From IMG/VR virus record IMGVR_UViG_3300027690_000149, positions 1 to 47,972 of that record: DNA of 47,972 bases; one strand, written 5' to 3'. The DNA comes from a virus. Lineage: Duplodnaviria > Caudoviricetes. The position numbers and the translations under genes are program-made. Positions 5,759 through 21,700 of this stretch are shown piece after piece. Each line of letters begins with the position of its first letter. The first letter of the stretch is position 1. The notes below the pieces were generated by a model that made no database searches, was not told where the DNA came from, and saw only the letters and a program-made list of their open reading frames with translations.

Positions 5759-6865
5759 ATGAGTCAAAGAATGCTATTTTCAGAACCCAAAATCATCTCG
5801 TTGTTTTCAGGATGCGGAGGACTTGATCTAGGCTTTCATATGGAAGGATACACTACTGTTTGGGCTAATGATAACTCTGAGTGGGCTGTGGAAACCTTCA
5901 GGAAGAATATCGGAAACGTTGTTGTTTTGGGAGACATAACTGACATTAGTCCTTATGAGGATAATTCAATTCCAGACTGTGACTTAATTCTGGGCGGCTT
6001 TCCCTGTCAAGATTTCTCAGTGATATGGAAGCAACCGGGACTAAACGGAAAAAGAGGCAATCTCTATAGACATTTTCTGGAATTTGTTGATGCAAAGAGG
6101 CCGAAAGCTTTCGTCGCCGAAAATGTTAGAGGTTTGCTTACTGCTAATAAACGAAAGGCAATCGAGAAGATTATTTCTGATCTAGAAGGGATAGAACCTG
6201 GATATGTTATAAAACCTCGGCTGTATAACTTCGCTGATTATGGTGTCCCTCAGTTCAGGGAGCGGGTGCTGATTGTTGGAATAAGGCAAGATACAGGATT
6301 CTTCTTCAGGCACCCAAAACCAACCCACGGACCGAGAGCTGGGAAACCTTATGTAACTGCTGGGCAAGCTCTCGAACTGGTAGAAACCATTCCCTATAAC
6401 AACGAACACATGAAAAGCACTGAGAAGACAAGAAGGATGCTAGAAATGATTCCTGAAGGGGGCAACTTCTCAGATGTCCCAAAAGATCATCCCCTATATG
6501 TCAAAGGAATGATAAGTCACGTTTATAGAAGAATAAAACGTGACGCGCCAGCGAAAACAATAATCGCTGCCGGCGGTGGGGGTACTTGGGGGTACCATTT
6601 CCCTGAACCCCGACCACTTACTAATCGAGAGCGGGCTCGTCTACAGTCATTCCCGGATGACTTCATCTTTTTCGGGAGTATCTCAGAAGTAAGAAGGCAG
6701 ATCGGGAATGCTGTGCCTCCTGTTGGAGTAATAGCGTTGGCTCGGCAGCTCAAGCCTTTGTTTACTGGTGAGTACTCAAGAGTAGACCTAAGCCTAGAAC
6801 TTGAAACTCTAAAAGGAGTCAGTATTAGAGAGCGTTTGGCGTTGGTTGAAAAGGAAATCGAATAG
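5759..6865 (+). CDS. DNA (cytosine-5)-methyltransferase (CglI/NgoAVII/NgoFVII type)
   Basis: Motif I FSGCGG, IV GGFPCQDFS, VI ENV, VIII QFRER, IX RERARLQSF, X QIGNAVP. Confidence 0.97.
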   Translation: MSQRMLFSEPKIISLFSGCGGLDLGFHMEGYTTVWANDNSEWAVETFRKNIGNVVVLGDITDISPYEDNSIPDCDLILGGFPCQDFSVIWKQPGLNGKRGNLYRHFLEFVDAKRPKAFVAENVRGLLTANKRKAIEKIISDLEGIEPGYVIKPRLYNFADYGVPQFRERVLIVGIRQDTGFFFRHPKPTHGPRAGKPYVTAGQALELVETIPYNNEHMKSTEKTRRMLEMIPEGGNFSDVPKDHPLYVKGMISHVYRRIKRDAPAKTIIAAGGGGTWGYHFPEPRPLTNRERARLQSFPDDFIFFGSISEVRRQIGNAVPPVGVIALARQLKPLFTGEYSRVDLSLELETLKGVSIRERLALVEKEIE

Positions 6866-6877
6866 TGGAGGTTGAGC

Positions 6878-7924
6878 TTGGAATTACTTCTGTCTAATTT
6901 TCCGCCGGTTGTCACCAGAATGCGGACATTTCAGGAAGCATTCTATGATCTTCTTCCAAAAGCGGATCAGTTGAATATTGCAGTTGGTTACGTTACAGCA
7001 GATTCTCTCCTAGAACTGAAGAGAATTATTGAATTAAACAGAATTGAGAAAGTGCGGCTGTTAATCGGCATGCATGGTGCGGATAAGTTCACAAGACAGG
7101 AGTATGATGCGGCAATTGATCTTGGGGCGTTTCTTGAAAAGGAGATTCGTGGTGAAGTTCTTCTCATCACAAGTTTTAGATTTCACGGGAAAATGTACGC
7201 ATTTTCAAGAGATAGATCGCCATTCGCTGCAATAGTTGGTTCGAATAATTTAAGCAGCATAGTGAGGACTTATAATCGCGTTTACGAAGCCTCTATACTA
7301 GTGGAAGATACTGTAATCTTGGAGGAAACAGGCAGGTTCATAGACAATCTGTGTAATTCCGCTGCCGAAAAGATAGCTGATGCTGAAATTAGTTCATTCA
7401 ATGACGACTCTTTCCCTTTGGAGAACCATGACTATGTCGAGCATCTAAACCTTTCGCAATCAGTGAACTATGTTGCAGATAAATCTGAAATCACATTTGA
7501 TATCCCAATTAAAACCGAATCCCGAAGCGGTTTAAACGTCTATTTTGGCAAGGGAAGAGAGAACAAGAAAACTAAAGTGGTAAAACCCCGTCACTGGTAT
7601 GAGGTTGAGATAATCGTTCCAAAGGAAATCACAGAGCATCCTGAATACCCAAAGGCAAAGTCTTCAACAGCTGTGTTTGATGTTGTTACAGATGACGGAT
7701 GGAAGTTCAAGTGCAAGGTCAGCGGAGACTATAGTAAGAATTTACGCTCAGAAAACGATCTAAAAGTATTGGGGATGTGGCTGAAAGGAAGGCTTGAAGT
7801 GCGTGATCTTAAACAGGGAGAGCCGGTCACTGATGAAGTTCTTGAAAGCTACGGAAGAAAATCCTTCTCTATGACGAAACTTAAGTCCGGCAATATTTGG
7901 TTTCTGGATTTTGGGGTCAGATGA
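6878..7924 (+). CDS. PLD-family restriction endonuclease subunit (NgoFVII / R.CglI-like)
   Basis: PLD motifs FHGKMY and GSNNLS; IAVGY; C-terminal PRHWYEVE...TDDG...KNLRS...LG.WLKG typical of RE_NgoFVII; TTG start 6 nt after GGAGG. Confidence 0.9.
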   Translation: MELLLSNFPPVVTRMRTFQEAFYDLLPKADQLNIAVGYVTADSLLELKRIIELNRIEKVRLLIGMHGADKFTRQEYDAAIDLGAFLEKEIRGEVLLITSFRFHGKMYAFSRDRSPFAAIVGSNNLSSIVRTYNRVYEASILVEDTVILEETGRFIDNLCNSAAEKIADAEISSFNDDSFPLENHDYVEHLNLSQSVNYVADKSEITFDIPIKTESRSGLNVYFGKGRENKKTKVVKPRHWYEVEIIVPKEITEHPEYPKAKSSTAVFDVVTDDGWKFKCKVSGDYSKNLRSENDLKVLGMWLKGRLEVRDLKQGEPVTDEVLESYGRKSFSMTKLKSGNIWFLDFGVR

Positions 7925-9810
7925 TGGACTATTTGAATACATATATTAGCAAACTGGAAGAGCGAGGACACTCAGCCCTAGCAGAATCTGTAGGAGCCAC
8001 TGCGTCACGGATTTCCGAGCGGTATATCAAGAATTTCTCATTCAGAGAGAATGTTTCAGCTATGCTCTATGGGGAGGTTCAAAGCGGAAAGACCAGTCAT
8101 ATGTTCGGTATTGCATGTGAATCGGCAAACAATGGATTTGGGATTTTCGTGCTTTTGACTAGCGATATTTCTGTTCTTCATACACAGACGTACGAAAGAG
8201 CACTGCGTGACCTCACAGACTTCTGTGTGTGTAATGAGGATGAGTACTTGAAATTCAGAGAAAATGGAATGCGTACACCTGCAATGATAGTGCTGAAGAA
8301 GAATGCAAGTGTTTTGAAAAAGTGGAAAGCCAACTTCTCTTCGACAGATTTTTGCAAAGGAAATCCAATGTTTGTTCTTGATGATGAGGCGGATTCAGCT
8401 AGTCTCAATACAAAGGTAAATATCGAACAACAGAGTAGAATAAATAGTCTGCTCGAAGACATTAAGAGTCTGGCATCTAGTAGTGTGTACCTTCAGGTGA
8501 CAGCCACTCCTCAGGCGGTTCTCCTACAGACTGCAAAGAGCGGATTTCGGCCGTTCTTTGTTTGCTACTTCAGACCAGGCCCTGGATATATTGGGGGCGA
8601 CTTCTTCTTCGGGGATGATAGCAGTCCTTATATTGTGCTAACAAAAGATGATGAAGCAGAAAGCCTGGTAGTTGACGACGAATTCCCGGAAAATGGACTC
8701 AAGGAAGCATTGGTCAACCATCTTCTTGTGTCAGCTGATACGTTTTTGAGTGGTGGCCGAGTCTGTAATTTCCTTATCCATCCAAGCTCAAGAACGGAAT
8801 TACACTCGCATTTCGCTGAGAAGATCGGCAGGTATTTAAATGAAATAATTCCCGCGGTAATAGATGAAGAGGCTTGTGACTTGTTCAAGTATGCATATGA
8901 GAAACTGAAGAGTACTAAACCTCAGATCATAGCGTTTCCGAAAGCAATGAATTTCATTAGGAAAATGGTAGAAAGAGATTCTGTAAGCATTTTGGTTCTT
9001 AACTCTGTTAATGAATTCATAGACAGGAAGTGTTTTGAGGAAGGAATTAACATTATCGTTGGTGGAAATACCTTGGGAAGGGGGATGACAATACCAAAGC
9101 TCCAGACAATCTACTATTGCAGAACTTCGAAGAAACCTCTTGCCGACACCATGTGGCAACATACAAGAATGTTCGGATATGACAGAGAGCCAGCGATGAT
9201 GAGGATCTATTTGCCTCCCAATCTATTTAAGCTTTTTAGAGAAATCTACAGTACGAACAAGGGAATTGTCGCGTGTATTGAGAAAGGAATTGATGTGTCA
9301 GAAATCATATTATCATACCCAAGAAACTTGAATCCAACAAGGAAAAATGTTCTTGATGCAAAGTCAGTTGATATTATTTCAGGAGGAGTAAATTACTTCC
9401 CGTTTTCACCTGAGAATCCTTCTATTGAGGAAATGGACAGGGAGCTTGAGAGGTTTGCTGATGGCGAATATTCGGCCAGTCTAAAATTTCTGACAGCGCT
9501 TCTCGAAGGCGTTGTTGCAGATGATGGTTGGGATAAGGAGAAATTCATTGGAGTTTTGGAGGCACTGCAGGCTGAGAATTCTCTGGCCCAGGGATTTCTA
9601 ATCGTAAGGCGCAACAGAGATATAGCAAAAGGTACTGGAACGCTGTTATCTCCAAATGACAGAGCTATCGGCGAACAGATTTGGGATAGAGTTGTCCTCA
9701 CCATGTATAAAGTGACGGGAAACAAAGGTTGGAATGGCAGGCAGATTTGGATTCCCAATATCAAGCTGCCGGGCAACAGGCTCTATTTTTCTGTAAGTGA
9801 GACCGGTTGA
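7921..9810 (+). CDS. SF2 helicase-like ATPase with Z1 domain (H.CglI / N.NgoAVII-like)
   Basis: GEVQSGKT, DDEAD, TATP, GGNTLGRGMT, DTMWQHTRMFGY; ATGA-coupled to the endonuclease. Confidence 0.9.
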   Translation: MMDYLNTYISKLEERGHSALAESVGATASRISERYIKNFSFRENVSAMLYGEVQSGKTSHMFGIACESANNGFGIFVLLTSDISVLHTQTYERALRDLTDFCVCNEDEYLKFRENGMRTPAMIVLKKNASVLKKWKANFSSTDFCKGNPMFVLDDEADSASLNTKVNIEQQSRINSLLEDIKSLASSSVYLQVTATPQAVLLQTAKSGFRPFFVCYFRPGPGYIGGDFFFGDDSSPYIVLTKDDEAESLVVDDEFPENGLKEALVNHLLVSADTFLSGGRVCNFLIHPSSRTELHSHFAEKIGRYLNEIIPAVIDEEACDLFKYAYEKLKSTKPQIIAFPKAMNFIRKMVERDSVSILVLNSVNEFIDRKCFEEGINIIVGGNTLGRGMTIPKLQTIYYCRTSKKPLADTMWQHTRMFGYDREPAMMRIYLPPNLFKLFREIYSTNKGIVACIEKGIDVSEIILSYPRNLNPTRKNVLDAKSVDIISGGVNYFPFSPENPSIEEMDRELERFADGEYSASLKFLTALLEGVVADDGWDKEKFIGVLEALQAENSLAQGFLIVRRNRDIAKGTGTLLSPNDRAIGEQIWDRVVLTMYKVTGNKGWNGRQIWIPNIKLPGNRLYFSVSETG

Positions 9811-9812
9811 AG

Positions 9813-10250
9813 ATGACGGACAACCTCCCTCATGACGTCAGAAGCTACAACATGTCACGGATAAAGAGTTCTAACACAAGTCCTGAAGCTGTTGTTAGGA
9901 AGTTTCTTTTTTCAAAAGGACTACGATATAGGAAGAATGATTCCAGATTGCCCGGTAAGCCTGACATTGTCTTGCCCAAGTTCAAAAAAGTTGTTTTTGT
10001 CCATGGCTGCTTTTGGCATGCTCACGATAACTGTGATCGATTCAAATGGCCAAAATCAAATCTTCTCTATTGGAAACCAAAACTGTTCAAGAACAAGCAA
10101 AGAGATATTGATAATGAAGAGAAACTTCGCACTCTAGGATGGGACGTTATCGTCGTTTGGGAGTGTGAGTTGAAAACCCAAGAGTTGAGGGAAAAACGAC
10201 TTTCGCTATTATACTTGCAAATAACGGGGGCTACCTCTCATGATAGCTGA
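9813..10250 (+). CDS. vsr: Very short patch repair endonuclease
   Basis: RSYNMSRIKS.NT.PE, LPGKPDIV, FVHGCFWH.H, GW.VIVVWECE. Confidence 0.95.
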   Translation: MTDNLPHDVRSYNMSRIKSSNTSPEAVVRKFLFSKGLRYRKNDSRLPGKPDIVLPKFKKVVFVHGCFWHAHDNCDRFKWPKSNLLYWKPKLFKNKQRDIDNEEKLRTLGWDVIVVWECELKTQELREKRLSLLYLQITGATSHDS

Positions 10251-10292
10251 GATCTTGTTTCTTGTGATGAGTGAGTGAGGTAGGCTGCAGAT

Positions 10293-10685
10293 TCAGAGAT
10301 TCTTGTCAATGATTTTCATGATTGATTTTTCAAGGACATCGTCGACCTTAGTTCTGTTTCTGAGAATGTACCCATATTTTGGACCCACTGACTCTCTAAG
10401 AAGCTTCCTGATCATGTTGTTAATTAATCTGCCTTTATCTCCCGAAAACTCCTTTACGATACTAATTCTGACTCTCCACTCATAGATGTCGTCATCCCAA
10501 ATCATATCCTCAGAATAAAAGACATCACCATCTATTCTTGCTAATACGACGCCCTGATCTCCAATCAGCAGGAGAAAAGGCTCACCAATGCACCAAGAGC
10601 CGAAAGTATTTTTGTTTCCCGCAAATACATTGTATTCCTTGCACGGCTTGAACTTTTCCCAGGTTGCCAAAGAGGCCATTCTCAT
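10293..10685 (-). CDS. Putative EVE/PUA-like domain protein
   Basis: VFYSEDMIWDDDIYEWRVRI resembles the EVE-domain C-terminal motif; own RBS (GGAGG) and TGnTATAAT at 10715-10723 (-). Confidence 0.5.
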   Translation of the reverse strand: MRMASLATWEKFKPCKEYNVFAGNKNTFGSWCIGEPFLLLIGDQGVVLARIDGDVFYSEDMIWDDDIYEWRVRISIVKEFSGDKGRLINNMIRKLLRESVGPKYGYILRNRTKVDDVLEKSIMKIIDKNL

Positions 10686-11039
10686 TGAAATTCCTCCAAT
10701 AAATATTTGTCTTGATTATAGCATTATCAATCCCTTTCGAGAAATCCAATGTAACAGCATTTCTTGGTTGTATATTGTTCCTCTTTCGTGACTCGGTTCT
10801 CTATATTCAGTAATATATAGGCCAAACATTACCTATTATCTGGTTCATCAGGAGCATTTCACTATAGTCGAACATCAGAGCATCTCCCCCCAGATCCAGA
10901 AATTCTCTCGTGAAAATCGCTTCGCTTCAACGCTAAGTTAAGAGATGATCTATCACCAAATCTTCTCCTCAACGACGATTTCATAACCTCCGACAGCAAT
11001 ATAGAAGGTACCTTCATTGTATTTAGTTCTCATGTGTAC

Positions 11040-11621
11040 CTAGACTGGTATTTCCTTGAGAGCTTCCTTGAAAGTAGCCGCGTTCTCTCCTATAAACCTG
11101 TCAATTTCTTGTATGATTTCCTTGAATTCTTCTGGACCAGTGCCTAGAATATCACCCTGAATTTCACCGAAAATCTCTCCCGCAAAGCACACCATTATGA
11201 ATGCAGTAGTTTTCGAGACTCTTTCATCAGGAGTATGAAATCCTCTCTTTCCCTTTTCAATATAGAGACCCGCATTTCGTATTTTGAAAATCCTTCCTTT
11301 CTTGAACCACTTCCCAAATCGTTTCTCTATATTTCCATATATTCTCGTAACTCTAAGGTTGACAAATAGAGCCCACGAGACTGCTTCCAAATACTTCGCC
11401 TGATGATCTCTGAAAGTTTTCTTGGGAACTCCGCCAGTGACTTCTTGAGCCTCGTGTTCCTTTATCATCACTGCCTTACCAGTTTCTTCTATTAGTGTAG
11501 CAGCAAAAAACGCTGCCAAAGGATAGTCTTGATCACTATAGAACTTCAGGCATAATCTCCAGTACTTATGCAGAGTATAGTATATTCTGCTTTTTGGCAC
11601 TCTTTGAGCCCCCTTTATCAC
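11040..11621 (-). CDS. AbiV-family (HEPN-like) abortive infection protein
   Basis: LIEETGK, DHQAK and RNAGLYIE match the AbiV-family pattern EE.GK / H..K / RN..LY. Confidence 0.75.
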   Translation of the reverse strand: MIKGAQRVPKSRIYYTLHKYWRLCLKFYSDQDYPLAAFFAATLIEETGKAVMIKEHEAQEVTGGVPKKTFRDHQAKYLEAVSWALFVNLRVTRIYGNIEKRFGKWFKKGRIFKIRNAGLYIEKGKRGFHTPDERVSKTTAFIMVCFAGEIFGEIQGDILGTGPEEFKEIIQEIDRFIGENAATFKEALKEIPV

Positions 11622-11873
11622 TAAAGACTTTCAGAATTGGATTAAGGAATAGATCGCGAGTTTTCCGGCTTCAGTCAAAACAGATTGAATTACACAAGAG
11701 AGAAAGCGAGTATCCCTTAGATTATTTTCTGCATCTCCCTATAAATGAGTAGAAAAACTTTTGACGCGAAGACAACAAGAGAGAGCAGCAAAAGCAGAAG
11801 CACTAAGACTTCCTTCACACTAACACCATTCCAATCGTATTTACTGCTTCGTTGGCCCTAGTAGGAAAGTAAA

Positions 11874-12524
11874 TCAAGAATCAGAAAACTTTCTCTTCAA
11901 ACCAACAACTACCCCGATAATAGCACATTCGGCGTCCCATCTGTCTTTATCTATTCTAATAGGCTTGTACTCAGGATTCTCAGAGGTAAGAATCACCATG
12001 TCAGATCTCTTCTGGAAGTATTTTATGACGCCTTCCTGCCCGTTTATTCTGACAACGACCATCTGGCCGTTCCTGGCGACCGGCTGCTTTCGCACGAAAA
12101 CTACGTCACCGTCAAGCAGTTTAGGGAACATGCTGAAGCCTGTTACTGTGAGAGCAAAATCGGCGGCTTCTGACTGATCAACTGAAGTGTATCCAACAAT
12201 GTCCTCTTCCGCAGGTACGCCGATGCCGGCCGCGACTTTCCCAAGGATCGGGATCTCCTTCTGGGGTTTCAGACTAGAAGTGGAGACCTCTCCTGTAAGT
12301 CTGGCTTCAGGATCGTCAACAAGGCCGAGAAGATAGTCGACAGAAACACTCATGGACCTGGCAAGCTTCATCAGCGTATCAGCAGTAGGACTCCTTTGGC
12401 CGCTTTCATATAGAGAAAGCTGAGCCTGTGATACCCCGCTGGCATCGCAAAGCTGACTCTGAGTCATTCCTTTGGATTCCCTTGTCATCTTTAGTCTTTC
12501 CTGAAAGCTCTCCAATACGCTCAC
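11874..12524 (-). CDS. CI/LexA-type prophage repressor (XRE HTH + S24 peptidase)
   Basis: HTH (MTQSQL...LSLYESGQRSP); Ala-Gly cleavage site GKVAAG; catalytic Ser (SMFP) and Lys (IKY). Start is uncertain (12524-12530). Confidence 0.93.
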   Translation of the reverse strand: MSVLESFQERLKMTRESKGMTQSQLCDASGVSQAQLSLYESGQRSPTADTLMKLARSMSVSVDYLLGLVDDPEARLTGEVSTSSLKPQKEIPILGKVAAGIGVPAEEDIVGYTSVDQSEAADFALTVTGFSMFPKLLDGDVVFVRKQPVARNGQMVVVRINGQEGVIKYFQKRSDMVILTSENPEYKPIRIDKDRWDAECAIIGVVVGLKRKFSDS

Positions 12525-12531
12525 CAACACG

Positions 12532-12622
12532 ATTATACCCCTTATAATATTCTATTTGCAATTATTGCAAAGAGAATTTAACTGATGAATATATCTCAAT
12601 GTAATATTGCAAGTGGTATATT
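12532..12622. promoter_or_regulatory. Divergent cI/cro promoters and operator
   Basis: Leftward TTGCAA-18-TATAAT (12561-12532); rightward TGnTATATT (12614-12622); palindrome ATTCTaTTTGCAA-tta-TTGCAAAgAGAAT (12549-12577); related TGTAATATTGCA at 12600-12611. Confidence 0.7.
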
Positions 12623-12648
12623 ACTAATGAAATGATGGAGGTGCTCAT

Positions 12649-12882
12649 ATGACCCGACTCAAAAAGCTCCGTATTAGCCAGAACATCACCGTAACTGAGC
12701 TATCAAAGATGACCAATATCCCACAACCTTCTCTAACTCTCATAGAGAACGGAAAAAGAAACCCGTCTTTCGCAGTAGCTGACAGGATAGCATTCTACTT
12801 TCAAATACCAGTTGAAGATCTATTTCCACAGTTCAAGCGCCACAGTCCTTATCCGAAGCATACATCGAAGGCTGCTGTTTGA
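12649..12882 (+). CDS. Cro-like XRE HTH regulator
   Basis: LKKLR...ELSK...IENGKRNPS; divergent from the repressor; RBS GGAGGT. Confidence 0.9.
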   Translation: MTRLKKLRISQNITVTELSKMTNIPQPSLTLIENGKRNPSFAVADRIAFYFQIPVEDLFPQFKRHSPYPKHTSKAAV

Positions 12883-12933
12883 ACGAAAAGGTCATTGATA
12901 ACTGAATAGCTAACCTTGTCGCAGGTGGGACCA

Positions 12934-13113
12934 TCCGACCGTAAAGTGGTAGGGGAAAGAGCGGGAAAACTGACGGCTCTTGAATCATCTATCGGGGTGA
13001 TTCGTAACCACGAAATAGGAGGTTATTGCAATGAATAAGCTCTTGGTGCGTCATCTCGTATCAGTTTCCCCGCAGTGAATAGGATAGTGCAATCATACCG
13101 TATGTCAGTCGGG
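12934..13113 (+). ncRNA. Candidate structured RNA (~180 nt) containing a 15-codon ORF
   Basis: Nested stems 12934-12951/13096-13113, 12961-12973/13061-13073 (12/13 paired) and 12982-12990/12995-13003. Confidence 0.45.
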
Positions 13114-13181
13114 AAATTAAAACTTAAGTGTGAAATTTACAGAAGCGTGGTTGAAAAAGCAAACAAGGATAAGGAGGGCCT

Positions 13182-13469
13182 ATGGAAGAAATATTCTCGT
13201 TCACTGATTTCGAGACAAGGGGTTCAATTCAGTTGCTAAAAACTGAGGAAGGCAGTCAAGTCATATATTTACTGTCTGACACACGTGTGTTTTGGGAGAA
13301 TAACGATGACGATATCAGAAACTCCCTGCTTCTCATAACAAGTGATAGAGACAAGATGAAAGACACTCTTCTTTCACTTATTTCCAGTAATCCCAGTTAC
13401 ACACTTTACAGAGATGATGGTAAATCCTTGAGTAATGAGGAGATAACTGAATTACTTCAAATTATCTAG
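13182..13469 (+). CDS. Hypothetical acidic protein
   Basis: 95-aa ORF with a strong AAGGAGG RBS. Confidence 0.7.
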   Translation: MEEIFSFTDFETRGSIQLLKTEEGSQVIYLLSDTRVFWENNDDDIRNSLLLITSDRDKMKDTLLSLISSNPSYTLYRDDGKSLSNEEITELLQII

Positions 13470-14179
13470 CTAACATCGAATTCAATGTCTTCATCCTTTG
13501 TTTCGATGGTATATTTCTGCTTTACGTCATCAGGAAGCCTGTCGAGGATATTTATGCATACTGTTTTGGCAGTCTTACGAACCTTTTTGTAGACACGCTC
13601 GATGCCGATGTCGTATACTGCATCTCCCGTGTGAAGACCGATTACAATGAACCCATCATTGTGACTTGGCAGAGACTTCATGCCTAATGAGTACAGAGAA
13701 TGAAGGTGAATTGACTTTTTGATTTTCGATGGCACTACGTACACGAACACTCTTTTCTTCCTGTATTCAAAGGTGAAATGTGGTGACATCACAACTTTCA
13801 CTGATCCTGAATACCCATCCTTTTGCTTCGAATAGGTGAACCATTCTTCAAAGACGTGATTATCTGCACAGATCCTTGCAGAATTCGCATATCTTAGCCG
13901 GGTATCGGAGCTCATCAAGTCAGCAAATCTGGTGAGAGCAAGTTGGTTTTTCTCACGCCAGTTCATCTTGTCAGGCTTCCCAGCGAAAGATCTGTCAATG
14001 AACGTTGAGGCTGTTTCAGCACCATAATTGAAGTACAGTGCCAGTGAATCGCGAAATGGCTTATACCCCATAGGCTTGTACTTCCCAGCCCTGTTGTGTT
14101 CTGCAAATGCTTGCTCATACCTTTCCACATCTTCTCCAACAAAAGATGAAAGAAACTGAGCTGGCAACTTGTAATCCAC
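13466..14179 (-). CDS. Hypothetical protein, possibly distantly SocB-like
   Basis: 237-aa ORF with an AAGGAGG RBS and GTG start; resemblance to SocB judged from memory only. Confidence 0.7.
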   Translation of the reverse strand: MDYKLPAQFLSSFVGEDVERYEQAFAEHNRAGKYKPMGYKPFRDSLALYFNYGAETASTFIDRSFAGKPDKMNWREKNQLALTRFADLMSSDTRLRYANSARICADNHVFEEWFTYSKQKDGYSGSVKVVMSPHFTFEYRKKRVFVYVVPSKIKKSIHLHSLYSLGMKSLPSHNDGFIVIGLHTGDAVYDIGIERVYKKVRKTAKTVCINILDRLPDDVKQKYTIETKDEDIEFDVS

Positions 14180-14263
14180 TTGAAATCCTCCTTTTCTACT
14201 TGGTAAGTAAAGCGCGGGGGAAATATTGTGGTTATTGGTGATCTAGTATTGTCATGAGTGGCA

Positions 14264-14365
14264 CTAGTTTGGTGTACTGCGATAGTGGGGTGGAACCTTT
14301 GTACCGTCTTTCCGGGTATATCCTCGTACATATACTTTTTTCTTGCCCACTTGCGTTTTGGCCAC
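14264..14365 (-). CDS. 33-aa basic micropeptide with a V.GY.RKDGT.V..H.RS.PN motif
   Basis: MAKTQVGKKKVYVRGYTRKDGTKVPPHYRSTPN; AGGTGA RBS; I recognise this motif from many bacterial and phage proteins. Confidence 0.75.
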   Translation of the reverse strand: MAKTQVGKKKVYVRGYTRKDGTKVPPHYRSTPN

Positions 14366-14628
14366 AGTTATCACCTACCTTTCCCACTCCCCCACGCACA
14401 ATTAACAGCAGGTGACACATTTATGATAGCTCATTCGCTCCATAAATCATGTTAACGACTTTCCGCACGTTCCCATACTCAGGCAGACTCGAACCCTCTT
14501 TCATCTAAACCTCCTTGATGGAACAGATGAACCCAACAACTTCGCCGGTGGAGTGACGACCCATCGGCCTTTCTGAGTATGTGAACGAGTTACAGAGTAC
14601 TTTGCAGCAGCACTACTCACATGGCGTT

Positions 14629-14658
14629 GCCCCGGTGCCTATACGCCGGGGCCTTTTT
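14629..14658 (+). terminator. Early-operon terminator
   Basis: GCCCCGGTG-N6-CGCCGGGGC followed by CTTTTT. Confidence 0.75.
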
Positions 14659-14711
14659 GCAAAGCGTATCGAAAACCCAAACTAGACGAAAGGCAAATGA
14701 AGGAGGCAACT

Positions 14712-14882
14712 ATGAACGAAGCGAGAGCTAGAAGGTTAGGAAAAGCCCTGTACCCAATAGTCAAGGAAATGAAAGAAAAGGGTCTATGGGTCTCTGAAAC
14801 GAAAGAGAAGGCGAAAGAGGAGAGGAGGGATGCAGGTGCCAAAGAAGTTGTCGGTGCCGCTAAGGGAATTCCCGATAACTGA
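14712..14882 (+). CDS. Small hypothetical early protein
   Basis: AAGGAGG RBS before ATG 14712. Confidence 0.6.
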   Translation: MNEARARRLGKALYPIVKEMKEKGLWVSETKEKAKEERRDAGAKEVVGAAKGIPDN

Positions 14883-15324
14883 CCAGGTGAACGAGAACTG
14901 GAACTCACAGGCGACATCATATGACGGCATTCTCACGATCAACGAATTCAACGGACTCAAAGGCGAAGACAGCGAGAAAGAACTCATGGAGTACATACAG
15001 AGAGAACGTATGAGGGCTAGCCAACGCAAGGACTATTACATGGCCGACGTGCTCTGCAGGGTCCTGGACTGGATGAAGACGATAGACGAATACCAGGATT
15101 CGAAGATCGTAAGGATTCACAAAGCCTTCAGGCGGATCAAGTTCGAGAACTGGCAGATGAACGCGAAGCTTCTATCTCTGGATCCTTTGAGATCGGAGAG
15201 GTACTACAAGAAGATCGACAGGCAGATCCCGCTGGGCCTAGAAGTCGATCGAGGAGTAAAGGTCTTCAGAGACGACTCAGGATGGACCCTGGGGAATCAA
15301 TTTCAAACGAAGAAGGGAGGTTAG
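14830..15324 (+). CDS. Hypothetical early protein
   Basis: 164-aa ORF in the early operon with phage-like codon use. Confidence 0.65.
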   Translation: MQVPKKLSVPLREFPITDQVNENWNSQATSYDGILTINEFNGLKGEDSEKELMEYIQRERMRASQRKDYYMADVLCRVLDWMKTIDEYQDSKIVRIHKAFRRIKFENWQMNAKLLSLDPLRSERYYKKIDRQIPLGLEVDRGVKVFRDDSGWTLGNQFQTKKGG

Positions 15325-15328
15325 GAGA

Positions 15329-15526
15329 GTGGGAAGAAAGATCGAACCGCACGAGGTCGTATCACACGGACTCTATCTCTACAGAGGCAGCAACGCGCAG
15401 GTCGCCGAAGATATCTACCGCAAGGTCATCGAAGGAAAGATGAAAGCCGAATGGTACATGAACGGGGTCCTCTATCGCTGGAGCGGCCCGGGCAAGGAGA
15501 AAGTTATCAAGCTTGTTACCGCATGA
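15329..15526 (+). CDS. Hypothetical protein
   Basis: GGAGG/AGGAG RBS; GTG start; in operon. Confidence 0.6.
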   Translation: MGRKIEPHEVVSHGLYLYRGSNAQVAEDIYRKVIEGKMKAEWYMNGVLYRWSGPGKEKVIKLVTA

Positions 15527-15603
15527 AAAGGGCCGCTCAATCAAGCGACCCAAAGACATTCTTATGAGTACCAACAGAATTATAGCACAAGGAGGTATCT
15601 GAA

Positions 15604-16554
15604 ATGGAAGCCGTTCGCTTGGCAAGCACAAAGCGTATCAGCATTGAAGAGTGGAAGCGTGAAAGGATGAAAGGGATTGGCGGTTCTGACGTGGCCGCTG
15701 TCCTTGGAATAAGCAGATGGAAGAGCGCGATAAGGGTCTATCTCGAAAAGATCGGGGAAGCTCCTGAAGAGGAAGTCAACGAAGCGATGGAGATAGGAAA
15801 GAGAATTGAAGACTTCATCGCGGACCTATTCAAGGAAAAGACCGGTCTTCATGTTGTCAGATGCAACGCGATTCTTCAAAGCAGTGAATATCCCTGGATG
15901 ATCGCGAACGTGGACCGGGAAGTATATGACCCGGAAACCGACTCCTGGGGAATTCTTGAACTCAAAAACGTCTCTCAGTACATGCAGAAGGACTGGGAGG
16001 GAGAAGAGATCCCGCCCGAGGCATACGTCCAGCTCCAGCACTATCTCATTGTTACCGGCAGGACCTGGGGCTACATAGCCGGTCTCATTGGAGGCAAAAG
16101 GTTCGAATACAAGAGGTTCGAACTGGATGAGGAGCTCGCAGACGAAATCATCCGCAGGGAAGAGACCTTCTGGAAAGAGAACGTGCTCAAGGGGATCCCG
16201 CCGTCTGCAGACGCAACCGAAGACTGCGCAGAAGTCCTGAAAGTCCTCTTCCCTGAGTCAATGCGAAAGTCAATAGACCTTCCCCCGGAAGACGACCTGA
16301 TCGTTGAAGAGCTGGAGACTCTCAAGGCCCAGAAGGAAGAGCTGGAGAAGGAGATCACTCTGCGTGAGAACAAACTGAAGGAGCGTCTTGGAGAAGCTGA
16401 GGCAGGCTTCACCGGAAGGTTCTGGGTCTTCTGGAAGAGCTACTACTCAAAGAGGTTTGCTCAGTCAAGATTCAAAGAAGAAAGGCCAAAGGACTATGAA
16501 GCTTATCTGGAAGATACGCATTCCAGAAGGTTCAGGTTCAAGAGAGCTGCGTGA
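15604..16554 (+). CDS. YqaJ-like (lambda exonuclease family) recombination nuclease
   Basis: GIGGSD.AAVLG, ANVDR, ILELKN, QLQHY; adjacent to recT. Confidence 0.93.
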   Translation: MEAVRLASTKRISIEEWKRERMKGIGGSDVAAVLGISRWKSAIRVYLEKIGEAPEEEVNEAMEIGKRIEDFIADLFKEKTGLHVVRCNAILQSSEYPWMIANVDREVYDPETDSWGILELKNVSQYMQKDWEGEEIPPEAYVQLQHYLIVTGRTWGYIAGLIGGKRFEYKRFELDEELADEIIRREETFWKENVLKGIPPSADATEDCAEVLKVLFPESMRKSIDLPPEDDLIVEELETLKAQKEELEKEITLRENKLKERLGEAEAGFTGRFWVFWKSYYSKRFAQSRFKEERPKDYEAYLEDTHSRRFRFKRAA

Positions 16555-16567
16555 AGGAGGTCTGCTG

Positions 16568-17482
16568 ATGCCTAAAGCAAGTGAAATCACTTCTATGGTA
16601 AAGAAGGAAGATGAAAGAAGGAACCACAAGCCCGATCCCCTAGCAGGAATAGTCAAGAACCTCACTTCAATCAAAGGGGAAATTGCCAACGCCCTTCCGG
16701 ATGCGGGAATAACTCCCGAAAGAATGATAAGAATAGTAGTCACTCTTCTCAGACAGAACAAGAGCCTCGCTGAAGCGGCCATGCAGAATCCCGCTTCACT
16801 GCTGGGAGCAGTCATGATGGCGGCCCAGCTTGGCCTCGATCCCACGAACGGACTAGATCAGTGCGCCCTGGTCCCAAGGAAGGGGAAAGTTTGTTTTGAC
16901 ATCATGTACGAGGGCTTAGTAGAGCTTGGTTACAGGTCAGACAGGATGGAATCCATTGTAGCGCGAACCGTCTATGAGAAAGACACCTTCAGTCTGAAGT
17001 ACGGACTCAACGAAGAGCTTGTCCACATACCATACCTAGATGGAGATCCCGGCGAGTCGAAGGGCTACTACATGGTCGGCAAGCTCAAGGGCGGCGGAAA
17101 CATCATAGTCTACATGACGAAGGACCAGGTCCACAAGATAAGGGACAGGTATTCTGTGGCCTACAAAGCTGGCCTAAGCGGCAGCAGGAAAGACAGCCCC
17201 TGGTTCACGAGTGAAGACCGGATGGGAGAGAAGACAGTCGTTAAGGCCGGGTTCAGGTGGATCCCGAAGTCTCCTATTATTAGGACGGCTCTAGCGCTGG
17301 ATGAAACCGCTAGAGAGTGGAAACCAAGTGAGCAGGAAGAACCCGATATGTCCCTGGTAGAGGCCGAGAACATCTGGGACGTCGAGGGAGAAGAAGTGAC
17401 CGAAGTAGTAGACGCTGAAGTCGTCAAGACAGGCAACGGCGACGGCAAAGCCTTGACCGGTAAGAAACCCTTAGAAGTTTGA
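16568..17482 (+). CDS. recT: RecT-family single-strand annealing protein
   Basis: SLLGAVM.AAQLGLDP, LVP, YEGLVEL.YRS, SPW...M..KTV; ATG 16568 follows AAGGAGG. Confidence 0.93.
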   Translation: MPKASEITSMVKKEDERRNHKPDPLAGIVKNLTSIKGEIANALPDAGITPERMIRIVVTLLRQNKSLAEAAMQNPASLLGAVMMAAQLGLDPTNGLDQCALVPRKGKVCFDIMYEGLVELGYRSDRMESIVARTVYEKDTFSLKYGLNEELVHIPYLDGDPGESKGYYMVGKLKGGGNIIVYMTKDQVHKIRDRYSVAYKAGLSGSRKDSPWFTSEDRMGEKTVVKAGFRWIPKSPIIRTALALDETAREWKPSEQEEPDMSLVEAENIWDVEGEEVTEVVDAEVVKTGNGDGKALTGKKPLEV

Positions 17483-17532
17483 TCTCACAGCCCACCCTTT
17501 TTCGGGGTGGGCCTTCCATTGAGGTGAATCAC

Positions 17533-18363
17533 ATGTCATACATAGATCTCGTTAATCGCTTCTGGACAATAGATTCTGAATTTAGTTTCTCCCATCTTGA
17601 AGTCCATTTATACTTCAAACTTTTGGAGATAAACAACAGACTCGGATGGAAGGAAAAATTCTCTGTTTCCAATGGGCGGTTGTGTGCTTTGATAGGTACT
17701 ACTCAAAAGAACCTCATTAAGGCGCGACAGAGATTAATTGACAAGGAAGTCATCGGATACAAGAAGGGTACCACTCGGGAAGCAGGAGTCTATTACTTTC
17801 CTTTTCATATGAAAAAGGAAACTAATTTGGAAAGTAATGTGAAAAAAGAAAGTAATTTGGAAAGTAATTTGGAAAGTAATCAGGGAAGTAATCCGGGGAA
17901 TAATCTGGGGAACATTAATAAGACTAGACTAGATAAAGACAAAGATATTATATATATACCCGCGCCCGCGATTGAAAAAATTACTCTCCTATGGAACCAA
18001 TTCCAGATCTCCAAAATTCCTGATAACCGAGAGAAAACTGAAAACTCGATTCTAGATGCCTTGAGACGACACGGTGAAGAAAACCTGCTGAGGGCTGTAA
18101 GGAACTACGCCGAGATAGTCGGCGGTAGAGAATACATTCTCAGTACTCGTTGGCAGCTTTCGACCTTCATGGAATCTCATGTTGAGAAGTTCCTGGACGA
18201 GGAAAGCGCGAAGGCTATGTACCGTATGAAAGGAGGGCCGGATGGAAGAAGCGAAAAAGACTCAAGGGACAGCTGGAAGGAACGCTTCAAGAACCCAGCA
18301 GGAACTCATACCGATGAGCGAGATCTTGAAGAGCTGCTCATTAAGTCAGAAACAGGCTCTTGA
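17533..18363 (+). CDS. Phage replication initiator protein
   Basis: N-terminal wHTH (LYFKLLEINNRLGW...ARQRLID), internal repeats, followed by a DnaC-like gene; RBS GAGGTG. Confidence 0.85.
   Translation: MSYIDLVNRFWTIDSEFSFSHLEVHLYFKLLEINNRLGWKEKFSVSNGRLCALIGTTQKNLIKARQRLIDKEVIGYKKGTTREAGVYYFPFHMKKETNLESNVKKESNLESNLESNQGSNPGNNLGNINKTRLDKDKDIIYIPAPAIEKITLLWNQFQISKIPDNREKTENSILDALRRHGEENLLRAVRNYAEIVGGREYILSTRWQLSTFMESHVEKFLDEESAKAMYRMKGGPDGRSEKDSRDSWKERFKNPAGTHTDERDLEELLIKSETGS
17811..17912 (+). repeat. Iteron array (probable phage replication origin)
   Basis: Tandem ~12-bp units (GGAAAGTAATTT and variants) inside the initiator gene, followed by an AT-rich tract; lambda-O-like arrangement. 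Confidence 0.8.
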
Positions 18364-19072
18364 AGAGTGTCGCTCGAAATGCCCTGGTCCTCAGAAGTGT
18401 GGGACCGGCGGACTGATCGAATACGTTGAGAACGGTATTATGACCAGGGTCTTCTGTCCTGTCATGGAAAGGTACCTTAGTCAGGTGAAGATCCAGCAGA
18501 AGATCATGAACGCCCTTCCGAAGAACTTCTGGGACCGCACGTTCGCGACATTTCTTCCCAGGACTCCGGATCTCAAGGCCGCTCTCTTAGCCGCGAGAAA
18601 GTACACAGGAAAGAAGGCCTGGAAGATAGGAGCAAATCTGGTCTTCCTTGGCGGCTATGGTACCGGAAAGACTCATCTGGCCGCCGCGATTGTGAGCGAT
18701 GCAATATCTGAGGGAAGCACGGCAGCCTTCGTCACTTCAACGAGTCTCACGGGGAGCATCCAGGAGATCAGCAAGAAGTTCGAAGAGCTGAAGACTATCG
18801 AGCTAGTGGCCATAGACGACGTCGCTGTAGAACAGGAGAACAAGATAGTCATGCAGAAGATGTTCGAGCTTATCAACTACAGGTACGAAGCCGAGTTAGG
18901 AACGGTCATGACATCGAATCTGAACCCGAAGGAGTTCAAAGATCTCATGGGTGAGAGGATCTGGGACCGTCTTGCCGAGAGAGTCTTCATAGCCTACATA
19001 CAGGACGCCGAGAGCTTTAGAAAGCAGAGGAGAGACGAGTACGTCGACTGGCTGAATGAAGAGGGGGAATGA
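18242..19072 (+). CDS. DnaC/IstB-like ATPase (helicase loader)
   Basis: Cys cluster; Walker A GGYGTGKT; Walker B VAIDD; TSN; RIWDRL. Confidence 0.9.
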   Translation: MEEAKKTQGTAGRNASRTQQELIPMSEILKSCSLSQKQALEECRSKCPGPQKCGTGGLIEYVENGIMTRVFCPVMERYLSQVKIQQKIMNALPKNFWDRTFATFLPRTPDLKAALLAARKYTGKKAWKIGANLVFLGGYGTGKTHLAAAIVSDAISEGSTAAFVTSTSLTGSIQEISKKFEELKTIELVAIDDVAVEQENKIVMQKMFELINYRYEAELGTVMTSNLNPKEFKDLMGERIWDRLAERVFIAYIQDAESFRKQRRDEYVDWLNEEGE

Positions 19073-19266
19073 ACATGGTTCTTGTCTGGATCTACGTCGT
19101 GGGAGTCCTCATGGCCGGCTTCCTGATTATGGTCACCGAGGAGCAGGAGAGGATATTTATCCCTCCTGAAGAGAAACTGCTTTCTTACGTAATCGGTTCG
19201 CTTCTCTGGCCGTATGTGATCATTCGGTGCCTGATCATGTGGATTAGAGGAAGGGGGCTAAAGTGA
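19069..19266 (+). CDS. Small membrane protein
   Basis: Two hydrophobic segments; ATGA coupling. Confidence 0.65.
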   Translation: MNMVLVWIYVVGVLMAGFLIMVTEEQERIFIPPEEKLLSYVIGSLLWPYVIIRCLIMWIRGRGLK

Positions 19267-19434
19267 ATGAAGAGCATCGATAGATACCTTAGAAGACAGA
19301 AAGAAAAGATAACTTCTCAAGGGAGGCAAGATAAGAAACTCCAGAAAAAGCAGGAAACAGACGCGAGAAGGGCCGACGAACTCTTCGGGCCAGAAGAGGA
19401 ACGGGAGAAGGCGCGACAAGATGACTCGGTATGA
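19267..19434 (+). CDS. Small charged hypothetical protein (55 aa)
   Basis: MKSIDRYLRRQKEK...; starts immediately after the previous stop. Confidence 0.45.
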   Translation: MKSIDRYLRRQKEKITSQGRQDKKLQKKQETDARRADELFGPEEEREKARQDDSV

Positions 19435-19511
19435 ACGCGCAGTAGTTCTGAAGAGAATAGACGGCCTCTGGAGAGAGGTATATGCGAAGAGGCTTATAAG
19501 GGAGGTAAAGA

Positions 19512-19775
19512 ATGACCAAAGCGAGACTCGAATTCATAAATTCGGTAGCTCTCAGGCATAAGCAGATCCGGGAAGGAGACAAACCGATCACTCCAGGCGA
19601 GACGAAGAATCTTGGATACATTATGGAAGGCGTCCTCTTTGAATGCATTGAGGAGATCGAAAAGATCCGGAAAGAGAACCTCAAGCTTCGGGAGACGATT
19701 GACAGCAACGGAATTATGATCCTGAAGGACAATGAGGATAAGTACCGCCTGGACACTGTCGAGGTCGATTACTGA
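19512..19775 (+). CDS. Hypothetical protein
   Basis: GGAGGT RBS; in operon. Confidence 0.65.
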   Translation: MTKARLEFINSVALRHKQIREGDKPITPGETKNLGYIMEGVLFECIEEIEKIRKENLKLRETIDSNGIMILKDNEDKYRLDTVEVDY

Positions 19776-19978
19776 TGAGCTTAACTCAGAGAGCAGTTTA
19801 CTCCTTCCTTCTCGAAAGACTTGACGAGGCCTCAGAAGACCTTGAGGTCATTGTCGAGGGCAGAAAACTCTGGCAGGCAGCCTTCAAGGCAAAGGAAAAC
19901 GCCGCACTGACATTCCCTGGCAGCGAGTGGCGGATAAAGAGGTGGATGAGGACGAATGGTAAGAAGAATATGCCCTAA
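19775..19978 (+). CDS. Hypothetical protein
   Basis: TGATG coupling to the previous gene. Confidence 0.6.
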   Translation: MSLTQRAVYSFLLERLDEASEDLEVIVEGRKLWQAAFKAKENAALTFPGSEWRIKRWMRTNGKKNMP

Positions 19979-20111
19979 TTGTGGCAAAGAACAGTTTAGC
20001 AGTGTCGAACAAGAAGACTGGACTTGCAGCAGCTGCGGAGCTGAAATACCTAAAGAACTGAACGAGGTGAAGACAGATGAAACAACTCACTCTGATCGGA
20101 ATAACAGTTAG
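19956..20111 (+). CDS. 51-aa zinc-ribbon protein
   Basis: MVRRICPNCGKEQFSSVEQEDWTCSSCGAEI...; two CxxC motifs; GAGG RBS; absent from the ORF track. Confidence 0.7.
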   Translation: MVRRICPNCGKEQFSSVEQEDWTCSSCGAEIPKELNEVKTDETTHSDRNNS

Positions 20112-20316
20112 AGACGAATTTGAGAATGAGATGCCGTACAAGGTTACATTGAAGGCCGCGATCTCTCACGGAAAGGGTTCGAGCAAACAGACCACAAACA
20201 GCGCCACTTCTCTCCAGATTCATCCAGGCCGCATAGACGAATTTGTTAGCGAGTTCAACGATCTCGTGCAGAAGTTCTCGAAGAAGGCTCTGCATGAAGA
20301 TGGGCTCGTCGAGTGA
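20077..20316 (+). CDS. Hypothetical protein
   Basis: GAGGTG RBS. Confidence 0.6.
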   Translation: MKQLTLIGITVRDEFENEMPYKVTLKAAISHGKGSSKQTTNSATSLQIHPGRIDEFVSEFNDLVQKFSKKALHEDGLVE

Positions 20317-20498
20317 GGTGGTTGAAGATGAAGTACAGAGTCATCCTTAAGAAGACAAATCAACTGGGAAAGGTTGAGGAGAAGAGACCTGTGATAGATG
20401 CCACGAGCCAGCATGAGGCAATGGAGATCGCCCTGAAGATCCCTGAAAACAGAGGCTTCTACGTATGGGGAGTGAAGGAAGATGAAAGTGAGAGTTAA
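20313..20498 (+). CDS. Hypothetical protein
   Basis: In operon; the true start is probably ATG 20328. Confidence 0.55.
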   Translation: MRWLKMKYRVILKKTNQLGKVEEKRPVIDATSQHEAMEIALKIPENRGFYVWGVKEDESES

Positions 20499-20727
20499 CC
20501 CTTCGCTGTTCAGATACCACGTCGAGAGGTCAGGAAAGACGATAACGGCAATCGGCGGCGACTGTAACTCTGCCAGAGTCCTTTTCAAGATCCTGACTGG
20601 CCGGACCAGGTTCACGACAATGAAGATGATCAGGAAATTCGCGAAGAACATGGGAATAGAGACGCATGAGCTTGTTCCCGACGAGAAAACGGAAAGGCTA
20701 ATAAGGGCGTTCGCGGAGGTGGAGTGA
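20482..20727 (+). CDS. Putative HTH protein
   Basis: XRE-like helix pattern (...IRKFAKNMGIETHELV). Confidence 0.5.
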   Translation: MKVRVNPSLFRYHVERSGKTITAIGGDCNSARVLFKILTGRTRFTTMKMIRKFAKNMGIETHELVPDEKTERLIRAFAEVE

Positions 20728-20728
20728 T

Positions 20729-20890
20729 GTGATTGTGATGGTACTGATCGCGCTGTTCATCCTTCTCATGGTAGGTTACGCACCGCTCATAATCTCAGGG
20801 AGGATCTCAGATGAAGAAGAAAGAAGAGAAAGCAAGGACGGAAACGGCAAAGGCGATCGGCATAGTTTATCCAACATACTTCGTGATTAA
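20729..20890 (+). CDS. Small single-TM protein
   Basis: Hydrophobic N-terminus followed by SGRISDEEERR; GGAGG RBS. Confidence 0.5.
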   Translation: MIVMVLIALFILLMVGYAPLIISGRISDEEERRESKDGNGKGDRHSLSNILRD

Positions 20891-21056
20891 GAGGCACGAA
20901 AGGAAGATAGACACGGAGATAGAAAAGCTCGGAAAAATGAAGACTTCAGAACCGGTCTCCAAAATGTGGCTCTATCTTCGGGGACTGAAAGAGTTTATCG
21001 AATTGTATGAGCAGCTTGAGAGTGCTAACCAGACGAAGATCCTGGAAAAGATGTGA
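20811..21056 (+). CDS. Hypothetical protein
   Basis: GGAGG RBS. Confidence 0.6.
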   Translation: MKKKEEKARTETAKAIGIVYPTYFVIKRHERKIDTEIEKLGKMKTSEPVSKMWLYLRGLKEFIELYEQLESANQTKILEKM

Positions 21057-21090
21057 GGGCTCAGGCCCTCATTCTCCTTCGGAGGGAATT

Positions 21091-21585: not shown

Positions 21586-21673
21586 GGATAAGCCATTGAA
21601 AGTGCTACACTACGATTGAGTGGCTGGATTATTTGAAAAACGCCTCAACCATTCGCCCTTTTCTTTGTAAGCG

Positions 21674-21700
21674 ATGGGCCGTATCTCGGCCCATTTTTTT
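21674..21700 (+). terminator. Rho-independent terminator
   Basis: ATGGGCCG-tatct-CGGCCCAT followed by TTTTTT. Confidence 0.85.

Follow-up and report, generated by a model that had tools for sequence, protein, structure and literature searches.

What fills the 1.8 kb between the cro-like gene and the recombination genes of this provirus, and which of its parts belong together? The DNA under study, here called the window, is an IMG/VR provirus record (IMGVR_UViG_3300027690_000149) taken in its whole length of 47,972 nucleotides (nt). Positions 12883-14660 of the window had been described in an earlier note, made from the letters alone, as two convergent orphan genes, each preceded by a fold-back leader that encloses a small open reading frame (ORF), with a third fold-back and a terminator behind them, and this had been read as one or two modules for toxicity, defence or exclusion under RNA control. 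Comparison with homologous loci points to another arrangement. The stretch appears to be a hypervariable accessory slot in the early operon of this temperate, uncultured phage, and two conserved elements that flank its cargo, named E1 and E2, are likely RNA signals gating read-through into the early genes; for this reading as a whole we put the probability at roughly 0.6.

The slot after cro and its contents

The homologous loci were gathered by alignment of the flanks and by searching with conserved words, and seven were obtained: the window itself, L003 and L004 from metagenomes (almost the same as each other), L007 and L008 from viral contigs, and L013 and L014 from contigs of metagenome-assembled genomes (MAGs). 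The blastn alignments showed that E1 (12890-12961) and E2 (14468-14658) align in all seven loci, while each of the cargo blocks is found in some of them only. Along the window, the stretch divides into a backbone leader directly after cro (12883-13129), cargo module A with a convergent pair of genes for proteins of 95 and 237 amino acids (aa) (13130-14204), cargo module B, which is the unit of a 33-aa basic protein (14205-14467), and the backbone element E2 (14468-14660).

Read in the plus orientation of the window, the slot of the window holds the 95-aa gene on the plus strand and then the 237-aa and 33-aa genes on the minus strand. L003 and L004 have the 95-aa gene on the plus strand, the 237-aa gene on the minus strand and an 84-aa gene on the plus strand, and L013 has 124-aa and 212-aa genes on the minus strand, the 84-aa gene on the plus strand and the 33-aa gene on the minus strand. 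The slot of L007 and L014 contains the 33-aa gene (minus) only, and that of L008 a minus-strand gene for a 150-aa membrane protein. This makes five different contents in seven loci, at a fixed position and between relatives which are otherwise colinear, as in a moron slot. The alternative cargo proteins of the relatives matched no known family, and none of the 7 cargo genes seen matched a known defence family.

The edges of the slot could also be seen in natural populations, in contigs of public sequencing runs. A 1908-nt DNA contig from another study matches the window at 13053-13129, runs through 1289 foreign letters, matches again at 14468-14658, and after 179 other letters continues with 14820-14900. 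In five runs of four studies (X3, X12, X5, X7 and X10), contigs depart from the window at 13123-13136, and one arrives at 14468. Additional mosaic junctions lie around the terminator at 14627 and 14658/14659. Because E1 and E2 are kept while the cargo is swapped, and because contigs switch at 13123-13136 and 14467/14468, the so-called leaders are phage backbone and not leaders of genes. We are fairly sure of the architecture, in which swappable accessory cargo sits between two kept elements, and the slot comparison supports the earlier description of the stretch as accessory cargo between cro and the recombination genes. Judged by their distribution over the loci, cargo modules A and B are independent of each other. 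The finding is a moron slot, which is ordinary as a kind of locus but unusually clean in this instance.

An RNA-library contig spans 13091-14302; it is an assembled contig that carries no strand information and may stem from DNA carry-over. The RNA-library contigs of one run leave a gap over 14539-14805, from which nothing is drawn. A second small variable spot was seen after the terminator at 14659-14819, where 161 nt are swapped for 179 in one DNA contig; the L003-type backbone has an additional 62-aa gene in this spot. Six other candidate loci (L005, L006, L009, L010, L015 and L016) were chance pattern matches within unrelated coding genes and were dropped. The two MAGs that hold L013 and L014 are assigned to Bacteriovoracaceae and Synergistaceae, and at least one of these binnings is probably wrong.

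E1, E2 and the terminator

E1 is a conserved non-coding element of 70 nt on the plus strand (12889-12958), which begins 7 nt past the cro stop, occurs as a single copy in the window and has two predicted stem-loops. It is present in all seven loci with a mean column identity of 92%, despite saturated synonymous sites in the neighbouring genes (proportion of synonymous differences, pS, 0.7-0.8), and it stays at about 90% identity across loci that differ in cro and in the helix-turn-helix (HTH) domain of the CI repressor. The two stem-loops were obtained both from RNAalifold and from the minimum free energy (MFE) fold of the single sequence. RNAalifold gave 21 pairs, and 98% of their cells in the alignment are paired, versus 26-59% when the partners were slid. 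Eight stem columns are variable; six of these keep pairing by G-U or Watson-Crick alternation on the plus strand and two break it. G-U pairing accounts for 30 cells at 8 pairs; read from the minus strand these would turn into A.C mismatches, the structure itself having been derived on the plus strand.

The rest of the backbone leader (12959-13129, plus strand) carries a UAGGAGG similar to a Shine-Dalgarno (SD) sequence, a 15-aa micro-ORF (13032-13079) and a conserved block (13086-13124), and the window and L008 are 76% identical over 12855-13140. The micro-ORF has a good ribosome-binding site (RBS), but its ATG is lost in L008 and no start was seen by eye in the L003 type, so that the UAGGAGG is kept in all backbone types without a conserved start codon. 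Taken whole, the first leader is marginal as a fold (z -1.94, equalled by 5 of 100 shuffles), and the earlier claim of a fold-back leader with its micro-ORF could not be upheld here. The UAGGAGG (13022-13028) is complementary to the loop ACCUCCUU of E2 (14509-14516), and a long-range pairing is possible, without specificity.

E2 is the stronger structure. Its core is predicted to be closed on the plus strand by the stem P1 (14468-14486 with 14569-14587), which encloses the hairpin P2 (14500-14506 with 14525-14531), with ACCUCCUU in its loop, and the hairpin P3 (14544-14551 with 14561-14568); at 14593-14660 come first a linker hairpin, P4, and then an intrinsic terminator (14629-14652, with a T-run). 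The homology begins exactly at 14468, the first base of P1, and because no conserved sequence was found upstream of P1, E2 is without a conserved promoter of its own. E2 occurs in all seven loci and is about 74% identical between the two backbone types, and the columns of its core are 88% identical, again beside saturated synonymous sites (pS 0.7-0.8). The plus-strand fold of 14466-14592 has an MFE of -44.9 kcal/mol, is the same as the centroid and was not reached by any of 200 shuffles (z -5.61), and the minus strand gave z -2.84. Paired cells amount to 98.3%, versus 37-48% after sliding, and there are 16 G-U cells at 6 pairs. By their G-U pairs four positions favour the plus strand, and one position favours the minus strand. 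Between the backbone types the stem arms stay and the loops and linkers diverge, and the loop ACCUCCUU is invariant in all seven loci.

The terminator of E2 has 9 pairs, 8 of them G-C, with a T-run on the plus strand only, and ranks first among the terminator-like sites in 10000-26000. Both backbone types have it in the same place, with loops that differ. So the third fold-back and the terminator of the earlier note are real and form the strongest signal in the stretch. In the L003 type the T-run leads directly into the RBS of the next gene, and in the window about 40 nt lie between them. A covariance model of E2 was run over 150 further genomes from the phylum to which G001, the MAG with L014, belongs, and had no match among them. 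The GGTTCGAGTC stretch of E2 was considered as a tRNA-like T-arm and rejected, as the tRNA/tmRNA scan gave 0 genes.

The cargo genes

Cargo A consists of an acidic 95-aa orphan read in the direction of cro (13182-13469, plus strand) and a 237-aa orphan with a GTG start (13466-14179, minus strand), which is antisense to the early transcript. Their convergent 4-nt overlap at CTAG, as first described, was seen again in the window and was also found in L003 and L004. Between the window and L003, the proportion of nonsynonymous differences (pN) is 0.18 versus a pS of 0.81 for the 237-aa gene, and 0.28 versus 0.82 for the 95-aa gene. Since the synonymous sites are saturated (pS about 0.8) and pN is low, both are real genes under purifying selection.

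Homologues of the 95-aa protein (55% identity) were found in L003 and L004 only, each time convergent with the 237-aa gene; a word-index search of 5.8 billion clusters returned the 95-aa protein alone, and an Atlas search gave nothing usable. For the 237-aa protein, the same word-index search gave one cluster at 69% identity, and a full HMMER scan of 1.84 billion representatives gave 6 proteins at E<=0.001, of which 3 are about 240 aa long and 22-28% identical. A search for related loci with both proteins found none in viral contigs and none in GTDB genomes. The toxin or defence identity suggested before found no support, as neither protein matched any family, those of toxins, defence and toxin-antitoxin (TA) systems included, in Pfam, PHROGs, PADLOC or NCBIfam, and PADLOC gave 0 families at E<=0.1 for the 95-aa, 237-aa and 33-aa proteins.

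The alignment of the 237-aa family has a conserved N-terminal motif DY.(L/I)(P/S)A..(I)S..V (in the window DYK(L)PAQ..SSFV), a core PHF...(R/K)N(K/R)K..Y..PS together with VLDR, and an acidic tail that closes with (D/E)F; the aromatic residue at the end is conserved in the family. The C-terminus in the window is DEDIEFDVS, and distant relatives end in ...DELEF, ...DDFDF and ...EFLDF. The acidic tail may resemble the tails of single-stranded DNA-binding protein (SSB), and the N-terminus may resemble clamp-binding motifs. A PDB sequence search with the family profile gave nothing credible. The AlphaFold2 model of the 237-aa protein, made from 3 sequences, reached a mean predicted local distance difference test (pLDDT) score of 47.7 and is unusable at this value. 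Ahead of the 237-aa gene, a stretch of 505 nt folds only marginally better than its shuffles (z -1.88). Tandem Repeats Finder (TRF) gave one 2-copy 11-nt repeat at the start of the 237-aa gene (14167-14188), and a general repeat search found short 2-copy families only.

Cargo B carries the 33-aa gene (14365-14264, minus strand), whose lysine-rich, hydrophilic product matches the profile of phrog_21154, a family without known function, at E 7.2e-7 (30.3 bits, residues 4-36) and has the core GKKKVYV...HYRSTP. This core is shared with 12 clusters of 33-56 aa and is invariant there. The gene has a pN of 0.04-0.05 versus a pS of 0.7-0.8, which indicates, from sequence comparison, that the ORF is a real conserved gene under purifying selection. 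A PDB sequence search with the small-protein profile found nothing credible. Cargo B aligns colinearly with L007, L013 and L014 (about 72% identity). RNAalifold over the window and these three loci predicted two pairings on the minus strand: the SD arm (14381-14369) with an anti-SD arm (14417-14405), and a G-rich segment (14397-14389) with a C-rich one (14220-14212) that has a short U-run behind it (to 14207), the second pairing enclosing the ORF. Both features are kept in all four loci with the 33-aa gene, and a further contig, L030, has an analogous stem enclosing the ORF.

The 33-aa gene was also present in 8 other viral contigs without E1 and E2, and models of E1 and E2 run over these 8 contigs gave no credible match. 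In these contigs it either stands alone, with 33-38 aa and a hairpin behind it (with a U-run in 2 of 3), or is a motif within secreted proteins of about 95 aa. In L024, L025, L027, L029 and L031 the motif GY.R.DGT.V..HYRSTP lies inside secreted proteins of about 91-99 aa, which have a signal-peptide-like N-terminus and an NYNPYTG-like repeat. The 33-aa unit is independent and not a leader of the 237-aa gene, because the 237-aa gene stands without it in L003 and L004, and L007 and L014 carry the unit but no 237-aa gene. The small gene is mobile and has its own predicted RBS-sequestering hairpin. So, of the claim that a fold-back with a micro-ORF and RBS precedes each gene, one half stands in changed form, in that the minus-strand fold-back encloses a real 33-aa gene and is kept in 4/4 loci; its assignment as the leader of the 237-aa gene falls, as the 237-aa gene of L003 and L004 lacks it.

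The proposed read-through, its rivals and known systems

One early operon is the simplest model of the locus, because E1 and E2 read best as plus-strand RNA, in the direction of cro, and because one backbone type leaves no room for a downstream promoter. In that type, L003, a promoter does not fit in past the terminator, so that the polymerase would get to the recombination and replication genes by read-through only. A promoter on the cro side would give one early RNA that runs through cro, E1, the slot, E2 and its terminator, and this RNA would be antisense to the 237-aa gene and the small gene; that both lie antisense to the early plus-strand transcript, as prophage morons often do, had been seen correctly in the earlier note. 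The terminator of E2 would act as a checkpoint, as tR1 does in lambda, and E1, about 0.3 kb from the presumed promoter region, would render the polymerase resistant to it, like nutR or putR before tR1. This antitermination reading of E1 and E2 is drawn by analogy and is tentative, and we would place it below an even chance. The cargo on the minus strand might be on in the lysogen, and at induction antisense read-through might silence it, and the 95-aa protein, made early from the lytic strand, could be a partner or an antagonist of the 237-aa protein.

Several observations weigh against RNA signals that gate read-through. Only seven loci are known, and they come from two closely related backbone types. 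The folding energy of E1 is ordinary (z -0.01), and double compensatory changes, by which the earlier note would have judged the stems, were found in 0 of the 21 pairs of E1 and in 1 of the 41 pairs of E2, with shuffles matching the observed scores of both; for E1 this shuffle control is uninformative, because there is no double compensatory change. One position of P1 pairs better on the minus strand in 4 sequences, and a perfect SD (AAGGAGGU) followed by ATG or TTG stands on the minus strand of E2 in 7/7 loci. No Rfam family matches 11500-16000 at E<=1, which holds for E1 and E2 alike, so that Rfam lends no support to homology of the two elements with put, nut, EAR or other curated families. 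For the minus-strand cargo a promoter scan gave no sigma-70-like site, and the RNA-library data are assembled contigs without strand information.

The conserved SD and its correct spacing to the start codon suggest an alternative, namely that E2 acts on the minus strand as an outward-facing expression platform (SD, short leader ORF, perhaps a promoter) for the adjacent cargo. The gene adjacent to E2 lies on the minus strand in 5/7 loci, and the minus-strand fold also beats its shuffles. But the leader peptide, seen in the window as a 27-aa ORF (14504-14421), keeps neither frame nor length (8-27 codons, with a 1-nt indel in the window), the 84-aa plus-strand gene of L003 and L004 separates E2 from the minus-strand gene, and the promoter scan found no promoter-like site on the minus strand in E2. 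Together with the G-U pairs, which favour the plus strand at 4 positions versus 1, and a hairpin and T-run that terminate plus-strand RNA only, this makes the alternative unlikely in our view. E1 and E2 may also have no RNA function at all, being conserved as anchors for homologous exchange or simply exchanged recently; the mosaic junctions do fall exactly at the edges of the elements (13123-13136, 14467/14468, 14627 and 14658/14659), and compensatory changes are nearly nil. The canonical terminator and exceptionally stable fold of E2 speak against anchors alone, as do stem arms that stay while loops and linkers diverge between the backbone types and an E1 that is kept at about 90% next to different cro genes and CI HTH domains, and we give anchors alone little chance. 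Still less probable is the release of E2 as a trans-acting small RNA, whose ACCUCCUU loop has the sequence of the 16S rRNA 3' end and would base-pair with the SDs of mRNAs from the host or competing phages. The invariant loop, the stable and compact core and a 3' end that would be set by the terminator are in keeping with such an RNA, but a conserved promoter upstream of P1 is lacking, no processing site is known, and the complementarity is without specificity, since any SD-like sequence pairs with any anti-SD-like sequence.

The view from which the analysis started, in which gene-specific riboregulatory leaders control one or two modules for toxicity, defence or exclusion, here taken to be like type I or type III TA systems, is improbable for the stretch as a whole. 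It draws on the 33-aa unit, where the anti-SD/SD hairpin and the enclosing fold-back are kept in 4/4 loci, a layout that resembles type I toxin mRNAs, and on the antisense orientation of the 237-aa and small genes. Leaders and genes, which by this view travel together, are uncoupled in 6/6 other loci: L007, L008, L013 and L014 have E1 and the leader without the 95-aa gene, and the same four have E2 without the 237-aa gene, and in L003 and L004 the 237-aa gene lacks the fold-back of the small ORF. Neither the 15-aa nor the 27-aa micro-ORF is conserved at the peptide level, and the 33-aa protein is basic and hydrophilic without the hydrophobic stretch of type I membrane toxins. There is no tandem array of RNA repeats as in ToxIN-like systems, apart from the one 2-copy 11-nt repeat, and no TA or defence family was matched. 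A purine-rich segment thought to be common to the two leaders turned out to be at chance level, with 14/26 positions identical when 30 shuffled pairs gave a best of 15-19/26, and a best local alignment equalled by 22/300 shuffles. The riboregulator reading survives for the small-gene unit only.

Gated read-through across a swappable slot could be extended into a joint model, which is improbable as a whole. In this model E1 would be a put-like, protein-independent processive antiterminator outside the lambdoids, and E2 a new structured RNA gate whose invariant loop, similar to the 16S 3' end, couples read-through to ribosome or SD pairing. The slot would be an integron-like platform with cargo that is on in the lysogen and off at induction, and the 95-aa protein a lytic off-switch of a 237-aa effector that targets the clamp or SSB partners.

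The surroundings of the slot were annotated as follows. The cro-like HTH repressor gene (12649-12882, plus strand, 77 aa; Pfam HTH_3, E 3.6e-12) is the first gene of the rightward early operon and is divergent from the gene for a CI-like repressor with HTH and Peptidase_S24 domains in Pfam (11874-12530, minus strand). Next to these lie an AbiV gene (11040-11621, minus strand), a PADLOC match that served as the positive control of the defence scan, and an island with restriction-modification (R-M) and Vsr genes (5759-10250), which adjoins the immunity region according to family matches. The immunity region thus collects defence cargo, because the R-M/Vsr island and AbiV adjoin the repressor. 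Compared with the CI of L008 (4291-4986), the CI of the window has a near-identical C-terminal S24 domain and a different N-terminal HTH, and cro is different too; at the level of sequence, the pattern looks like a swap of immunity specificity on an otherwise common backbone. Past the terminator, a 61-aa gene from the ORF call (14697-14882, plus strand) is the first delayed-early gene and is followed by a 164-aa gene, a YqaJ exonuclease gene (15604-16554, plus strand; Pfam YqaJ, 9e-34) and RecT (Pfam, 8.9e-35), and homologues of the early genes past the terminator come after E2 in L003, L004, L007, L008 and L014. No DNA match for the window was found among 50,697 phage records, and the portal protein is <25% identical to that of any cultured phage. 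The phage is not lambdoid, and its cultured relatives are all distant. Further downstream, a 221-aa protein (22002-22667, plus strand) has a SocA_Panacea antitoxin domain (E 2.2e-17). Terminator-like plus-strand sites lie directly upstream of its gene at 21673 and 21970, and the neighbouring genes (21007-21585 and 23232-23678) gave weak HTH matches only.

If the reading is true, the locus is a compact and testable example of a temperate phage that builds a cargo slot into its early operon, with fixed RNA signposts that would mark the sites of cargo exchange and set the times at which cargo is on or off. It would add two RNA motifs outside Rfam, one of them a candidate cis-acting antiterminator beyond the lambdoid phages, and three protein families without known function at a place where prophages tend to keep defence or exclusion genes. 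The E1 and E2 flanks could serve as a landmark for mining more cargo from anaerobic-digester and sediment metagenomes.

Among known systems, the right operon of lambdoid phages (cro, nutR or putR, tR1) has the same order as this locus, with cro, a structured site, a terminator and, behind these, genes for replication and recombination. In its 5' part, E1 may resemble the boxA of the lambda N/nut system, which combines boxA and boxB with an arginine-rich N protein. Unlike the lambdoids, this phage has a swappable slot of 0.3-1.4 kb between the site and the terminator, and its terminator is an intrinsic one with a structured domain of 125 nt ahead of it. According to PMC9378689, put RNAs measure about 70 nt and form two stem-loops, and the distance from the PR start to putR downstream is about 270 nt. 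Like putR of HK022, E1 is 70 nt long, has two predicted stem-loops and lies about 0.3 kb from the promoter region, and its placement is also alike, 7 nt past the cro stop and upstream of the strongest plus-strand terminator. No sequence or Rfam-level similarity between put RNAs and E1 was found, which is a weak negative, as the presence of a put model in Rfam was unchecked.

Cis-acting RNAs for processive antitermination in Gram-positive mobile elements have been described in Tn916 (canT), pLS20 (conAn2) and B. subtilis (EAR), and they share with E1 a non-coding RNA early in a long mobile-element operon and intrinsic terminators to overcome (PMC11658703). The RNA of canT needs 341-452 nt, whereas E1 has 70 nt and the leader in full 247 nt; homology was compared by Rfam only.

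For the 237-aa protein, 24 of the nearest 30 ESM Atlas clusters are unnamed and 6 carry the SocB label (PF26318) in part of their members, one of them at a feature similarity of 0.94 with PF26318 in 24% of its members; the length of about 240 aa is likewise similar, and this is a lead only. SocB is described as a clamp-targeting toxin (PMC12795458). The phage also has a SocA_Panacea protein, but it lies 8 kb away at 22002-22667, and the adjacent 95-aa protein is without a Panacea domain; the control genomes held no SocB locus and were uninformative.

A further comparison is with phage morons and prophage accessory or defence hot spots; a definition of morons and examples are given in PMC10884400. 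The cargo here shares with them presence or absence at one position, an orientation often counter to the flanking operon and many genes without a family. The slot described here differs from them in its sharp edges, which recur across studies at two RNA-like elements, and in its place within the early lytic operon, between cro and the first terminator.

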